A stretch of DNA of 32,000 nucleotides from Pseudodesulfovibrio mercurii (GTDB lineage Bacteria; Desulfobacterota; Desulfovibrionia; Desulfovibrionales; Desulfovibrionaceae), in contig NC_016803.1 of NCBI RefSeq assembly GCF_000189295.2, positions 2,760,001-2,792,000 on the forward strand, in the 5' to 3' direction. Every line of letters starts with the position of its first letter. Position 1 is the first letter of the stretch. The notes under the pieces are model-generated. The model did no database searches. It worked only from the letters and a program-made list of their open reading frames with translations, and was not told the origin of the DNA. The translations under genes were made by a program, and so were the position numbers. Of this stretch, positions 5,546-11,799 are shown piece by piece.

Positions 5546-6289
5546 ATGCTTCGTCAACAACGAGTGGAGAGGGCCCTGTTCAATCATTTACCATTGGTCG
5601 TGGCGGGAATCAGGGAGGTCTTGGAGGAGCGCTGCGCGGCCGGGGCCGTTGTCCTGCATCTGGCTCCGCAGGTCGAGCGAATGCTGCGGGACGCCTATGC
5701 GCGGGAGGTGACGCCGGTGGGGGACGTGCTGCGTTTTTTGGGCGAGGACGCCGAAAGCAGTCCGCGAAGCCTGGCGGCGCTGGGTTTTCTCAACGCGCTT
5801 CAGGCCCGGCTGTCCGAGGTCCTGGAAGCGGTCGCCGACCTGTCCAACCTCGAGGAGGCAAAGCTGTGGGCGTGGGTGGAACGCCGCTGTTTCGCTCCCC
5901 GCATGATGCTCGACTTCCGGCATCTGGCCGTTGTTGCGGAGACGCCGCGCATCGATGAGATCGAGCTCATGGAGGCCATCATGGGGAAGGATCGAACGGA
6001 ACTCGCGACCATCCGGGCCGGGGTGGTCGAGCGGGGCGCGACGCAGAACAATTTCGGATTCGATCTCGTGTGCCAGCTGTTGGCCGGAGAACCTGTCCGC
6101 ACCGGGTTGCAGCGGATATGGCGAACGGATTCCATCAAGCGGGCCGTGGCCATCCGCGACCGCCTTCAGACCCTTCCCATCGAGGAGCGGCAACGGTTTC
6201 CCGGCCACGCCGTCATGCTCCACCTGGCCGAGTTCACGCTGGAGCGGCTCCGCCTGCGCGTAACGGCCGAAACGGCCCGCCGCCGCTAG
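5546..6289 (+). CDS. hypothetical protein, 247 aa
   Basis: ATG 5546 is preceded by AAAGGAGAA. The frame is open to TAG 6287..6289. The composition looks like real coding sequence (MLRQQRVERALFNHLPLVVAGIREVLEE...). I recognise no motif. A 236-bp gap separates it from the upstream gene. Confidence 0.62.
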   Translation: MLRQQRVERALFNHLPLVVAGIREVLEERCAAGAVVLHLAPQVERMLRDAYAREVTPVGDVLRFLGEDAESSPRSLAALGFLNALQARLSEVLEAVADLSNLEEAKLWAWVERRCFAPRMMLDFRHLAVVAETPRIDEIELMEAIMGKDRTELATIRAGVVERGATQNNFGFDLVCQLLAGEPVRTGLQRIWRTDSIKRAVAIRDRLQTLPIEERQRFPGHAVMLHLAEFTLERLRLRVTAETARRR

Positions 6290-9200: not shown

Positions 9201-11799
9201 GCGCGTCCTCTTCATCGGGGTCGCCGAGCGGGAATTCCAGGAGCCCGTGGATGAAGGATTGCTCCAGTTCCCCGAGCTGCAGCCAGAAGCAGCGGTCCAG
9301 CTCCAACAGGAAGCGGGAATACGCATCGGGCGAACTGGCGTTCCCGAGGATGGTCTGTTGCAGGGCCTGGTACCGTGCGAGATGATTCTGCCACATCGCG
9401 TCCAGTCGCAGGAGGAGCGACACGCGCGCCCGCACGTTTCCCATTCGCGGCAGTGCGCGGTGCACCCTGTACAGCAATTCCTCGGCGAGCCGCGTGGCCA
9501 CGGTCTGGCGGGAAGACCCGGCCCAGTCCTGCAAGTCTTCCGGATCGAAGACGCCGAAGACGCAGGCGTCTTCGATGAACGCGTCGGAGAACCGGGTCGC
9601 CTTGCGGGGGTAATGGTCCGTAACGACCTGGGTGGCCCAATTGAGGACCATGCTGTCGATGTCGCCTTCGATGGCGGTGTTCAAGTGCAGCAATTTGCAC
9701 CGGAAGCCGTAGACAAAGGTGCGCTGGCCGTCCAGGAACGAGTCGATATGGTATATCGACCTTCGTTTTTCATAGGCCGCCGCCAACAGCTTCCCCTGCG
9801 CCCTGTTGATGGCGTTGGCGACCATTTGGGTGCTGATCGGCACATCGGGCTCCAGGCCGAATGATCGCATGAGCAACCGCGTGGCCGAGGCGGTGAGCAT
9901 TAGCCACTCGCTGTCGAGTGAGAGAATGAAGAGGCTCGTGCCGGGAGCGCCCCGCCGGGCCGTTCGCCCCCTGACCTGCGCGTCGATGGCCGGCGACATG
10001 CTGCGCATCAGGCCGATGACCAGCAGCCCGCCCTTGTCGCGCGCCTCGGGGCTGACCTTGATGTCCGTGCCCCTGCCCGCCAGCTTGGCCGCGATGGTGA
10101 CCGCTCCGGGCTCTCCGGCCGTGGCCAGGATGGAGGCCGCCTGCCGGGCGTTGCCCGCGACCAGAAGGCGGGACCGGACGCCCCGGGCGAGCAGATAGTC
10201 CCGGACCGCCTCAGCCAGGCCGATGTACGGGCAGTCGATCAGAACCGGGGCGCCGGTTCGCCAGGCCTCGAGCGTCAGCTCCCCGGCGCCGCGAACGGCG
10301 TCGGCGGTGGTGGGATATATCCTGTCCGGTTCGTCTTTTCGGATACACGGGGTGGCGCTGGGGATCAGCTCGGTGACGAGCCCGTAGAACTGCATGAATT
10401 CGTCGGCGTATTCCCTGGCGGTGGCGGTCATGCCCGAAAGGCGGCCGTAGAGTTGGACATAGTGCTGGATGGAGATCAAGCCGACGCGACGCATCGTTTC
10501 GCGTACTTTCGGCAGATCGAGGCCGTGCTTGAGGCGGAGGGCGATATCCGTTTCCCAGCCGAAGGGGGCGGCGTTTTCTCCCGTCTTGAGGCAAACCGGC
10601 CTGATGACGTCGTCGGCGATGTAATAGTGCTTCTTGTCCTGGAGGCCGAAGCAGGCATTGACCATCGTGTCGAGCAGACGGAGGACCTCCATGCCCCGGG
10701 GGCCGTATTCCCAGTGCTCCTCGGATTCGTCGACGGCAAAGGCGGCGAAGGCCTTTTGCCGTCCCCGCTCCGTGGCGCTCCACTTCCCGAGGTGGCGGAT
10801 GTCGCCGCTCCGCTCGTCGAAGTGCCGGACCACCTCGAACATCCGGATGAAGTCCCGGTTTGTTCCTTCCGCTTCCGCAGTCGCCGCGTTCAGCATGTTG
10901 TGTTCGCTTCTGGCTTCCTCGATCAGCGTGTCGTCGGCTTCGTCGAGGATGAGCCAGTCCTGGCGGCCGTCGAAGAGAAGCTCATCGGAATTGAGCGTGG
11001 TTTGATCGCCCAGGTAGCCGAAGATGAAATCGCTGATCCGGCCGTACACGATGTCCGCGGTGCGGATCTCTTCCGCCCCTTTGTCCCGGGGGGCCTCGCA
11101 ATAGGCATACGTCCGTCCGCCGATGCAATGGGTCTCACCCGTTTCGAAGGACTCCGGCTTCTCCCCCGTTTCGTCCACATTCAGGAAGTCGAGGAATGAA
11201 CTGAATTCGTCGTACATCCCGTCTTCGGGCGTATCCTGCTCCGGCGGCATCTCCTTGAGCCAGCCGATCCGCCTTTCCGTGAGGAGGGCCGCTTTCAGCC
11301 CGAGGGCCATGTAAAGCGGGGACATCTCCAGGAAGTCCCGTTTGGCCAGGTAGGCGTTGTAGGTGGAGATGTGGACCTGTTCGCCCTTGAGCGCGCCGCA
11401 GCACGCCGCAATGGCGGCCGCCAGCGTCTTCCCCTCACCGTTTTCCATCTGGATGATCCGCCCCCGGAGGAGGGCGATGGCCGCCTGGATCTGGTTCTGC
11501 CGGGCGTTGAGATTCCCCTCCAGCGTGCGCCGGGCGATGATCCTGAGCAGCGCGAGCAGGCGGGGGTACTCCTTGTCCTTGAGATTCCGGAAGTCCTCGA
11601 GGCGCAGCGCGGCGGCCCGCGCCTCGTCGGCGAGCTCCGGGAGCGGTTGGGCCGGTTCGTCCCGTCTGGTCTTTCCGGAAAGACCGATGATGTCGCTGAC
11701 AAGCTGGCGGGTCTGCCTGTCCACGTTGCGGATGCCGGTGTCGATGAATGCCCGTTTGGTCGAGTCGAAGATCGTTTTGAGCGCGTGCGGGTCGAACAT
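6286..11799 (-). CDS. giant fusion protein (1837 aa): complete SecA-like translocase ATPase + about 14-TM membrane domain + about 350-aa C-terminal domain
   Basis: Start set at ATG 11799 (MFDPHALKTIF...). The track's longer ORF reaching 12177 overlaps tyrS.

SecA hallmarks, all in SecA order:
- IQMENGEGKTL (Walker A, nt 11425..11439)
- STYNAYLAKRDFLEMSPLYMALGL
- ADIVYGRISDFIFGYLGD
- LILDEADDTLIEEAR (DEAD, nt 10933..10947)
- PPXD-like HYYIADDVIRPVCLKTGE...IQHYVQLYGRLSGMTATA
- YGLVTELIPSATPCIRKDEPDRIY
- GAVTIAAKLAGRGTDI
- GGLLVIGLMRSMSPAIDAQVRGRTARRGAPGTSLFILSLDSEWL
- scaffold helix INRAQGKLLAAAYEKRRSIYHIDSFLDGQRTFVY
- RLDAMWQNHLARYQAL

Residues about 910-1460 (nt 7420..9072) contain about 13-15 hydrophobic helices. 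Residues about 1490-1837 (nt 6289..7332) are soluble. Confidence 0.9.
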   Translation of the reverse strand: MFDPHALKTIFDSTKRAFIDTGIRNVDRQTRQLVSDIIGLSGKTRRDEPAQPLPELADEARAAALRLEDFRNLKDKEYPRLLALLRIIARRTLEGNLNARQNQIQAAIALLRGRIIQMENGEGKTLAAAIAACCGALKGEQVHISTYNAYLAKRDFLEMSPLYMALGLKAALLTERRIGWLKEMPPEQDTPEDGMYDEFSSFLDFLNVDETGEKPESFETGETHCIGGRTYAYCEAPRDKGAEEIRTADIVYGRISDFIFGYLGDQTTLNSDELLFDGRQDWLILDEADDTLIEEARSEHNMLNAATAEAEGTNRDFIRMFEVVRHFDERSGDIRHLGKWSATERGRQKAFAAFAVDESEEHWEYGPRGMEVLRLLDTMVNACFGLQDKKHYYIADDVIRPVCLKTGENAAPFGWETDIALRLKHGLDLPKVRETMRRVGLISIQHYVQLYGRLSGMTATAREYADEFMQFYGLVTELIPSATPCIRKDEPDRIYPTTADAVRGAGELTLEAWRTGAPVLIDCPYIGLAEAVRDYLLARGVRSRLLVAGNARQAASILATAGEPGAVTIAAKLAGRGTDIKVSPEARDKGGLLVIGLMRSMSPAIDAQVRGRTARRGAPGTSLFILSLDSEWLMLTASATRLLMRSFGLEPDVPISTQMVANAINRAQGKLLAAAYEKRRSIYHIDSFLDGQRTFVYGFRCKLLHLNTAIEGDIDSMVLNWATQVVTDHYPRKATRFSDAFIEDACVFGVFDPEDLQDWAGSSRQTVATRLAEELLYRVHRALPRMGNVRARVSLLLRLDAMWQNHLARYQALQQTILGNASSPDAYSRFLLELDRCFWLQLGELEQSFIHGLLEFPLGDPDEEDARPAERTFVAAEPRWRELPPIKGGMLDASPLKRLAGPANDPAQNLKIGLVLFALFFGLLYVPGWWDVSAWQKALSNPILASLDGLLTGRALSRGALLLFGILPGLLLQPRKLFKDADPRPLRWTLAVLAAAGVLSFAGVAQWQSASASALFLPLLIFLLPYIILRRRVSIFFNLSLPFFAVPLGTLAVLFLVRELTGSSLPLAEAAGTLMILCVLWIGMGMYQLYLLRTKQIVLPVIILLTLLVSTFDATYAASKPLMAVYAGSIILFAMTGAWLFKAKSALAVERYSGNERQDTVIEIPFSNALFFFCLVLLTVPAGLVLSGVADMVAAAVPPAFSFLAGLCAWPLAGTLTLGLLTASYTTWIYPLITRYVSTPLVLSLFEKGYLLKNARSIEHAAQAITAMTLRRIQKMSLFLILGLILHAALRATALFLTGRAASFPPNPPLFLLAAGCCAYVLSRIVGEFTQSVDIETARLGRFRHFDAPETSFSNELDKDILQEAEEMFRAVMADGREHAVRNTIGKCFSWGWRPRGPVPFTDVLQAALPAAILSAVTVLLPLHVVNSLVPALGLGAPVQLGASALLFAYFMAREVKNWLTPLPAEAGEPAPVPVAAGAGPAGETEAPPVLYISYDNRLVHVPLLTKEVSRGWPKPLYATFGNLQWCPSTPWGGVSNEDIARHAMEAFEALFKFITFTLCGAYLRCGPEKKKRGVIRQIQSMGRLSHGSLGEAMHSSLAGLADCDSEEWGYLKAVLIAPLLDSEPSANMRLLLDKLPDILPGGGRPDDNPYATEADPAVSTHVFQAIGQLRNKMSHFSLNGPPGRLAYLLTGAVNDLYALLSDGLTSLRLLHVDSVTYLGEGAHSALFHDFTGPERRPLTITLSPGQDLPTPDDLYLGRADGRPLFDMAPFMRVIGDAYDNPTPSFFNRSLDNQTEYHCYESPISLCRPLDYKECIDELAASGERPLGSDEAGALRS

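Follow-up and report, generated by a model that had tools for sequence, protein, structure and literature searches.

A divergent SecA motor fused to a polytopic, probably SecY-related membrane domain in Pseudodesulfovibrio mercurii

Introduction

To our knowledge, all bacterial systems characterised so far have SecA and SecY as two distinct proteins. How many copies of each make up the active unit, and how the motor docks on the channel and is released from it, is a long-standing debate. SecY is made of two five-helix halves arranged as a clamshell with a lateral gate, and its chain of ten transmembrane (TM) helices begins and ends in the cytoplasm (N-in/C-in), where it also has two long loops, C4 and C5. 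Here, we describe a gene of Pseudodesulfovibrio mercurii whose product (hereafter the fusion protein) joins a SecA module to a membrane domain of 14 predicted TM helices and to a C-terminal domain of about 350 residues. It lies in a stretch of 32,000 nucleotides (the window; NC_016803.1, positions 2,760,001 to 2,792,000, forward strand), and all nucleotide coordinates below are positions in the window unless a contig is named.

Among the closest described systems is SecA-SecYEG, as in the Thermotoga maritima complex (PDB 3DIN). The fusion protein has the SecA domains in canonical order with intact ATPase motifs; the 3DIN SecA chain is its best PDB sequence match, and its membrane core has SecY as best structural match and carries a TM2 segment that resembles the SecY signature. 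In contrast to this complex, it holds motor and presumed channel in one chain, SecA preceding the membrane domain, it lacks the zinc-finger tail, its finger tip is not bulky-hydrophobic, and it scores only about 316 bits as a SecA. Its membrane part is missed by the Pfam SecY model, has 12+2 helices, and is followed by an extra 350-residue orphan cytoplasmic domain.

Gram-positive bacteria may have a second, divergent SecA (SecA2), some of them with a second SecY (SecY2), for special substrates. SecA2-SecY2 loci carry asp genes, glycosyltransferase genes, and the gene of a serine-rich substrate. The SecA2 models score about as well as the SecA models on the fusion protein (234-273 bits). However, SecA2 and SecY2 are separate proteins, the host of the fusion gene is Gram-negative (Desulfovibrionaceae), and no asp, glycosyltransferase, or serine-rich substrate gene adjoins the fusion gene.

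That a covalent fusion of motor and channel can work is indicated by an engineered SecY-SecA fusion (SecYAEG), which translocates protein in vitro (Sugano et al. 2017, PMC5562318). It is a 1:1 fusion like the one described here, but it is artificial, has SecY before SecA, is built of canonical sequences, and still needs SecE and SecG. Among natural proteins, giant proteins of Omnitrophota and Actinobacteria have uncharacterised SecA-like domains with TM regions or MFS domains, for which a dedicated, non-housekeeping export role was proposed (West-Roberts et al. 2023, preprint; Kaur et al. 2021, eLife). They also combine a divergent SecA_DEAD module and TM regions in one polypeptide. Compared by description, they are nevertheless different: they have tens of thousands of residues and many enzymatic or toxin domains, and their SecA keeps PP_bind, lacks scaffold and wing, and comes after TM anchors, whereas the fusion protein has 1837 residues, a complete and N-terminal SecA with SecA_SW present and PP_bind undetected, and a membrane part that looks SecY-like. 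Finally, the secondary SecA_DEAD proteins whose genes accompany those of type I secretion (Kamneva et al. 2015, PMC4452313) are, like the fusion gene, second SecA-like genes in Gram-negative genomes, but they are soluble, lack SecA_SW wholly or mostly, and stand beside HlyD, OEP, and peptidase genes, none of which applies here. The first, sequence-only reading of this DNA, made by a model, knew of no characterised SecA-membrane fusion of this kind. This needs to be qualified by the uncharacterised SecA-domain/TM fusions of the giant proteins. In the literature searched we found neither a natural SecA-SecY fusion nor the accessions of the fusion protein, and as far as our searches show, a natural Sec machine with motor and channel fused has not been reported before.

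Results

A complete but divergent SecA module

As read from its sequence, the fusion protein is a catalytically intact but highly divergent SecA ATPase that has its own polytopic membrane domain. The N-terminal part (residues ~1-860) matches the Pfam families SecA_DEAD (residues 56-468, 7.1e-44), P-loop_SecA (2.8e-30), and SecA_SW (residues 654-817, 3.5e-14). Its top sequence match among solved structures is T. maritima SecA in the SecA-SecYEG complex (3DIN_A; residues 75-817, E 8e-73). The sequence-only reading had proposed a full-length SecA homologue with every module in order, and had named a generic superfamily 2 (SF2) helicase as one way in which this could be wrong. The Pfam SecA families and the alignment with T. 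maritima SecA exclude such a helicase, and identify this part as specifically SecA. Scaffold, wing, and two-helix finger are all present.

The motifs quoted in that reading were all located, and we judged their conservation in an alignment of the fusion protein with five canonical SecAs. They are the Walker A motif MENGEGKTL at residues 118-126 (with K124), DEAD at 286-289, GRGTD at 575-579, RGRTARRGAPG at 610-620, and RLDAMWQNHL at 798-807, to which we add GMTATA at 456-461. Residues G121-L126, D286/E287/D289, GMT.TA, GRGTD, and R610/G611/R612/R615 are invariant or clearly aligned, as are D800, W803, H806, and L807 of the wing motif. The residues of the ATPase motifs all occupy invariant columns, and these motifs are intact.

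The fusion protein stays far below the cut-offs of all NCBIfam equivalogs for SecA and SecA2, with 234-318 bits against cut-offs of 725-1493. The best SecA models give 316-318 bits (cut-offs 814-862) and the SecA2 models 234-273 bits (cut-offs 725-1100). By these scores it belongs to the SecA family, but is an orthologue neither of the housekeeping SecA nor of a known SecA2. Public databases call it "SecA DEAD domain protein" or, in RefSeq, "preprotein translocase subunit SecA". The latter name is misleading, since the score does not reach half of any SecA equivalog cut-off and over half of the sequence is something other than SecA.

Two inserts in nucleotide-binding domain 1 (NBD1) deserve comment. 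The acidic insert of about 65 residues had been presented as something that canonical SecA lacks. It is indeed missing in most of the canonical SecAs aligned, but T. maritima SecA (3DIN_A) has an insert of ~60 residues at this site, so that the site appears to be variable and tolerated in canonical SecA and the acidic insert has a precedent. The second, PPXD-like insert (residues 296-437) has the expected position and length, and few gaps are needed to align it to the PPXD of T. maritima SecA and of canonical SecAs. However, Pfam SecA_PP_bind did not match the fusion protein, so that the PPXD is recognisable through alignment only. At the other end of the module, the two-helix finger aligns at residues 818-845, with LGNASSPDAY (818-827) as its tip. 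The zinc-binding SEC-C tail, which in canonical SecA (a soluble or peripheral protein) goes with a C-terminal linker, is absent from the fusion protein in the alignment, and 14 TM helices and the 350-residue domain stand in its place.

A second, collinear copy in a metagenome

A search with residues 861-1837 gave one relative, P0121, on a 6.6-kb metagenome contig from ENA (L001; ctg9489l of assembly ERZ22147072). By tblastn, this contig encodes a collinear homologue of residues 181-1819, with ~46% identity, in three frames, and with almost no indels. Two frameshifts, at ~1150-1165 and ~3355-3362 of the contig, in the homopolymers CCCC and TTTTT, have led to its being called as three genes. As both lie in homopolymers and homology continues across them, they are most likely read errors (long-read indels) and not the mark of a split gene. 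As a consequence, public protein sets hold the homologue as fragments only (P0121 and P0122). The G+C content of the contig (52%) indicates that it comes from a different organism. Identity varies along the protein (Table 1), and the level of ~46% with almost no indels in all domains argues for long-term purifying selection on the fused form; on this comparison, the fused architecture is old and under selection.

The family is extremely rare, with two copies known. An exhaustive phmmer search of 1.84 billion representatives of ~15 billion proteins returned only the fusion protein itself, the two fragments of the metagenome homologue, and a spurious RCC1-repeat match. No further relatives were found in scans of genome, viral, and metagenome contigs. 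A DNA pattern for [FY]VPGWWDV, a motif of the first TM helix, occurred at three metagenome loci, where tblastn gave weak, non-significant matches (E at least 0.04). The one that we inspected, with YVPGWWDV in the ORF at 4446-6218 (+) of contig L084, reads as a double-domain ABC-type permease, with an ABC ATPase gene after it, and we take the motif match to be due to chance and not to homology. Another site of the pattern match is at ~2220 of contig L082.

A membrane domain of probable SecY ancestry

Fourteen TM helices between residues 906 and 1452 are indicated both by hydropathy and by the helices seen in two structure models, in agreement with the 13-15 that the sequence-only reading had put in place of the SecA tail. 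The hydrophilic insert among the helices and the soluble domain of ~350 residues that it had described are also found, as a loop at 1329-1402 and a domain at 1490-1837. With the SecA module set inside, the predicted cytoplasmic loops contain 34 Lys and Arg residues and the periplasmic loops 4. The predicted topology is N-in/C-in, consistent with the positive-inside rule, and these counts would place all large hydrophilic parts in the cytoplasm: the SecA module, a beta-hairpin at 1144-1165, the loops 1222-1276 and 1329-1402, and the C-terminal domain. The first 12 helices form a core. It has YVPGWWDV (925-932) in TM1 and GRALSRGALLLFGILP (953-968) in TM2, with a plug-like segment between the two helices, and also contains the cytoplasmic beta-hairpin and the K/R-rich cytoplasmic loop 1222-1276.

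Descent of this core from SecY, with very strong divergence, is in our judgement probable. We built two AlphaFold models, one of residues 861-1837 (predicted local distance difference test, pLDDT, 38) and one of residues 895-1335 (pLDDT 50); their confidence is low because the alignments hold 2-3 sequences. The best PDB match of the first model in Foldseek is SecY (8y9z_Y, E 0.044), and the next match has an E value of 2.2. For the second model, PDB ranks 1-16 are all SecY or Sec61α, with E values of 3e-3 to 0.18 and probabilities of up to 0.98, and the first match outside the Sec family follows at E 0.36. These alignments span 403-466 columns, near the full length of both partners, and the 16 structures come from Geobacillus/Bacillus, Thermus, E. 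coli, human (Sec61α), and Methanocaldococcus (SecY). The N-in/C-in topology and the two long cytoplasmic loops (1144-1165 and 1222-1276) also fit SecY, with a helix count of 12 and an ambiguous mapping.

Sequence comparisons point to the same family through its most conserved segment. The signature of TM1, plug, and TM2 in SecY reads …PG.D… and then GGALSR.SIFALGI.PYI. By eye, the fusion protein has …LYVPGWWDVS… followed by …LLTGRALSRGALLLFGILP, to be compared with …FIPIPGIDAA… and …MFSGGALSRASIFALGIMP in E. coli SecY; the TM2 signature itself is GRALSRGALLLFGILP in the fusion protein and GGALSRASIFALGIMP in SecY. This TM2 motif is at the expected place in both homologues, after TM1 and a loop of plug length. 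The E. coli SecY query matches PDB 5abb_A along its full 443 residues, with 960 bits. The top blastp match to it covers precisely TM1-plug-TM2 (query 912-968, SecY 27-84, pairwise E 0.038). With hhalign against 43 non-redundant proteobacterial SecYs, a match of 20 columns aligned GLLTGRALSRGALLLFGILP with SecY 65-84 (P 0.024), and hmmsearch supports the TM2 motif as well. The overall signals of blastp, hhalign, and hmmsearch are weak. The SecY hidden Markov model (HMM) is narrow, since our genome scan recovered only gamma- and beta-proteobacterial SecYs (65-100% identical to that of E. coli); the viral-contig scan gave three. In shuffle tests under three schemes, the score of the fusion protein was reached by 1-2 of 1000 shuffles and that of the metagenome homologue by 20-24 of 1000.

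A number of observations weigh against a SecY-type channel driven by this motor. Both models have low confidence, and the Foldseek TM-scores of ~0.22 leave the SecY fold unconfirmed. Pfam SecY (PF00344) did not match the whole membrane domain or any of eight segments of it at E values up to 10, no SecY was found by the exhaustive phmmer search, and none by a PDB profile search. The support from hhalign is limited to the 20 columns of the TM2 motif, with no further signal in the global and low-mact modes; the reverse HMM test gave a borderline result (Mann-Whitney p 0.01) that concerns the TM1-2 region only; a semi-global BLOSUM alignment with SecY gave no signal. The aligned region has 12 helices against 10 in SecY, and the helix maps disagree: hmmsearch equates TM8-9 with SecY TM7-8, and the parity-based map does so for TM9-10. 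This second match of blastp and hmmsearch (TM8-9) also clashes in membrane orientation with the loop-based mapping. In the motor, the finger-tip residue is Ala in the fusion protein and Arg in the metagenome homologue, where the canonical SecAs aligned have Tyr or Met. Canonical SecA is said to require a bulky hydrophobic residue at this position (Tyr794 in E. coli). A family of two gives no phylogenetic leverage. Finally, there is no substrate, signal-peptidase, or chaperone gene linked to the fusion gene in the window, and the neighbours differ between the window and the metagenome contig, whose downstream genes have no counterpart in the window.

TM13-14 were considered as a SecE-like element (AREVKNWLTP compared with EVRKVIWP of SecE). 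We rejected this candidate: the E value of 0.059 was obtained in a tiny search space and the motif comes after the TM helix instead of before it.

The C-terminal domain

The cytoplasmic domain at residues 1490-1837 had no match in Pfam, NCBIfam, PADLOC, or PDB sequences, and a profile search of 5.8 billion clusters gave nothing beyond one fragment of the metagenome homologue. In the first model (pLDDT below 50 here), its secondary structure is a beta-hairpin, ~7 helices, ~7 strands, and one more helix at the end. Conservation peaks in FQA.GQ[LI]RNK.SHFS.NG, which includes R1671 and H1676. The hexapeptide from R1671 to H1676 (RNKMSH, and RNKTSH in the metagenome homologue) fits the Rx4-6H pattern of HEPN domains, though with such a short motif chance is possible, and the four-helix core of HEPN had no profile match in the same four collections. 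No other observation points to a nuclease.

Possible function and alternative explanations

Our preferred reading, whose chances we see as evenly balanced, is a self-contained accessory translocase or insertase of SecA-SecY type in the inner membrane, with its own, probably SecY-derived channel. The cytoplasmic SecA module would bind a polypeptide in the PPXD clamp, and ATP hydrolysis (K124, D286/E287, R610/R612) would feed it into the channel, to which the motor would be permanently joined by the conserved 45-residue linker. The protein would act beside the housekeeping SecA/SecYEG on a dedicated substrate, and TM13-14 together with the C-terminal domain may stabilise the channel, select substrates, or have a regulatory role. 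Channel identity, translocation activity, and independence from SecYEG are what we infer for it. Of the three functions offered by the sequence-only reading (a SecYEG-independent exporter, an extractor of membrane proteins, and an ATP-gated effector), the resemblance of the membrane domain to SecY favours an exporter with its own channel, to the extent that the homology is probable. A more specific version, towards which we are slightly more doubtful than favourable, is a natural single-chain holotranslocon, in which a SecA motor, a SecY-derived channel, and possibly a TM13-14 pair replacing SecE/G would export or insert a dedicated substrate without SecYEG, with the C-terminal domain as substrate receptor or gate.

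If the preferred reading is true, a natural and conserved 1:1 covalent fusion of SecA and channel would demonstrate that permanent tethering does not preclude function in vivo. Structural and single-molecule studies would also gain a stable complex made of one chain, the purpose for which engineered fusions were built, and the extent to which a SecY-type channel can diverge while remaining in use would become apparent. Should the membrane domain be unrelated to SecY, the permanent union of a complete SecA motor with a conserved domain of 14 helices and an orphan domain would still be a use of SecA that has not been described. The current annotation as plain SecA hides more than half of the protein. 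With two copies known, the general importance of the family is limited.

We consider it rather unlikely, without dismissing it, that the membrane domain is not related to SecY and represents a novel polytopic anchor or transporter, where the motor would extract or remodel membrane proteins, gate a solute pore, or serve the housekeeping SecYEG while tethered. No family HMM recognises the domain, global sequence similarity to SecY is lacking, the Foldseek matches come from low-confidence models with TM-scores of ~0.22, there are 12-14 helices instead of 10, and the finger-tip residue is not conserved; moreover, the published SecA-like/membrane fusions carry unrelated membrane parts (MFS domains or generic TM anchors). 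On the other hand, SecY is the best PDB match of two separate models, the 16 SecY/Sec61 structures at the top for the second model are ~100-fold ahead of MFS and other transporters, and the most conserved motif of SecY is recognisable at the expected position in both homologues. The membrane domain is also as conserved as the motor, TM13-14 excepted, which argues against a mere anchor. An artefact, such as an assembly or sequencing error, or a decaying gene in which a SecA paralogue became fused to unrelated downstream genes, is given practically no credence here. It could draw on the fact that the only other copy is called as three genes with two frameshifts, but these are in homopolymers with seamless homology across them, the 5.5-kb open reading frame (ORF) is continuous in a closed 3.86-Mb genome and has a uniform coding signal, and identity is ~46% with almost no indels across all domains. 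A frameshift, as considered by the sequence-only reading, or a misassembly is thus ruled out by the continuous ORF and by the collinear architecture in a second organism.

The C-terminal domain suggests other roles. In one of them, which we regard as improbable, the protein is a conflict or abortive-infection effector whose C-terminal domain is an HEPN-like RNase (RNK.SH read as Rx4H), controlled or delivered by the ATPase and the membrane domain. GQ[LI]RNK.SHFS.NG is the most conserved C-terminal stretch in both homologues and fits Rx4-6H, helical secondary structure is predicted around it (in the low-confidence model), conflict systems typically show such extreme rarity and a patchy distribution, and the four genes of the left flank have no family assignment. 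However, we found no HEPN or defence match in Pfam, NCBIfam, PADLOC, or PDB sequences at E values up to 10, and by a rough estimate, the probability that a protein of this size contains a three-residue motif of this kind by chance alone is about 0.07. The right-hand neighbours are housekeeping genes (tyrS, coaX, chemoreceptor, cytochromes) rather than a defence island, no tRNA, integrase, or repeat marks an island, and no immunity-like gene follows downstream on the same strand. The domain is also conserved like the rest of the protein, unlike the tips of polymorphic toxins. Self-export is, in our opinion, very improbable. Motor and channel would then serve to bring the C-terminal domain of the same protein, which hangs on a Pro/Ala-rich tether, into the periplasm, in line with the published proposal that SecA-like domains of giant Omnitrophota and actinobacterial proteins export the protein itself, and the flexible 29-residue Pro/Ala linker ahead of the domain would suit this. 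Yet the 14 helices and the positive-inside rule place the domain in the cytoplasm at rest, it has no signal-like segment of its own, and the SecA modules of giant proteins lack the scaffold and wing that are present here, so that by architecture the fusion protein does not belong to that clade.

Gene structure and transcription unit

The product of the fusion gene is identical to EGB15688.1 / WP_014323114.1 / UniProt F0JCK8 of P. mercurii, and the closed genome carries its ORF uninterrupted; judged by position, the locus tag should be DND132_2485. The longest frame over the gene is 6286..12177 (-). The true start is the ATG at 11799, since AGAGG is found 7 nt upstream, the tyrS terminator lies upstream, and the N-terminus aligns with canonical SecAs (over its first 55 residues). 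The G+C content at third codon positions (GC3) is 0.78-0.88 across every domain, which indicates that one frame is coding throughout. Since the tyrS terminator is strong, the fusion gene forms its own, monocistronic, transcription unit; a consensus scan of 11800..11917 found no sigma-70 promoter. Its stop codon shares 4 nt with that of a convergent gene of 247 codons (5546..6289 (+), DND132_2484).

Table 1. Features of the fusion gene and its upstream region, with amino-acid identity to the metagenome homologue
Feature	Position	Strand	Evidence	Identity (%)
Complete fusion gene, SecA / 14-TM / C-terminal domain	6286..11799	-	Single ORF, exact database match, uniform GC3, collinear metagenome homologue	
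NBD1, residues 56-468, with Walker A, DEAD, and GMTATA; contains the acidic and PPXD-like inserts	10396..11634	-	Pfam SecA_DEAD, alignment	68-70 (NBD core segments flanking the inserts)
Acidic NBD1 insert, residues 178-245	11065..11268	-	Alignments	33
PPXD-like insert, residues 296-437	10489..10914	-	Position, length, alignment	45
NBD2, residues 484-640, with GRGTD and the RGRTARRGAPG arginine-finger stretch	9880..10350	-	P-loop_SecA	61
Helical scaffold, wing, two-helix finger, residues 641-860	9220..9879	-	SecA_SW; alignment shows the finger	45-46 (range shared with the PPXD-like insert)
Cytoplasmic linker between SecA module and TM1, residues 861-905, motif PLKRLAG	9085..9219	-	Conservation in the metagenome homologue	56
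12-helix membrane core, residues 906-1330, probably of very divergent SecY/Sec61α type	7810..9084	-	Foldseek, weak sequence signals, hydropathy	42-52 (most membrane blocks)
Hydrophilic cytoplasmic loop, residues 1331-1400, conserved IETA.LGRFRHF and FSW.WRP	7600..7809	-	Hydropathy, alignment	
TM13-14, residues ~1401-1460, conserved end LFAYFMARE.KNWLT	7420..7599	-	Hydropathy, models	24
Flexible Pro/Ala-rich linker, residues 1461-1489 (29 residues)	7333..7419	-	Sequence, composition	
Orphan cytoplasmic C-terminal domain, residues 1490-1837, and stop codon	6286..7332	-	Conservation in the metagenome homologue	47
5' leader, presumed to hold the promoter; ribosome-binding site AGAGG, 7 nt upstream of the ATG	11800..11917	-	Read from sequence	
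Intrinsic terminator of tyrS, upstream of the fusion gene	11918..11946	-	13-bp stem, 10 G-C pairs, T-run	
tyrS, upstream of the fusion gene	11970..13259		Pfam tRNA-synt_1b	

Genomic context

The window has a G+C content of ~66%, and no tRNAs or Rfam families were found in it. The flank to the right of the fusion gene has an ordinary chromosomal gene content: there come tyrS, an unassigned ORF, a type III pantothenate kinase gene (coaX), a Cache/HAMP chemoreceptor, and a cytochrome bd-like/multihaem fusion, followed by a GT4 glycosyltransferase, UbiA, MscS, and others. Models of defence systems gave no match to the fusion protein and its neighbours except a weak one of ZorA to the chemoreceptor (15609-17828, E 2.6e-4), and no stretch passed.

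On the left, four successive genes on the plus strand converge on the fusion gene: 614-2092, 2013-3182, 3189-5309 (DND132_2483), and 5546-6289 (DND132_2484). None of the four matches a Pfam or NCBIfam family, and the two that we looked up are singletons in their 90% clusters. By eye, the first (614-2092) ends with a helix-turn-helix resembling sigma-70 region 4, and the second (2013-3182) has a CxxC element like those in anti-sigma factors. An ORF at 5425-5958 was rejected as a gene; with a GC3 of 0.45, it is spurious.

Three proteins further to the right have unusual architectures. The GT4 glycosyltransferase (21786-24215 (-), 809 residues) has a matchless N-terminal region of ~440 residues and a secondary match to Pfam 'GT4-conflict' (4.6e-10). 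The protein of 24264-25340 (-), with 358 residues, is far longer than usual DksA/TraR proteins: its C4 zinc finger of the DksA/TraR type is restricted to the extreme C-terminus (314-346), after an N-terminal region of ~310 residues that has no family match. The protein of 19018-21528 (+), with 836 residues, is an unusual quinol-oxidase/multihaem fusion, where a membrane domain like subunit I of cytochrome bd (17-231) is combined with cbb3-type, c3/c7-type, and MtrC-like multihaem cytochrome c domains.

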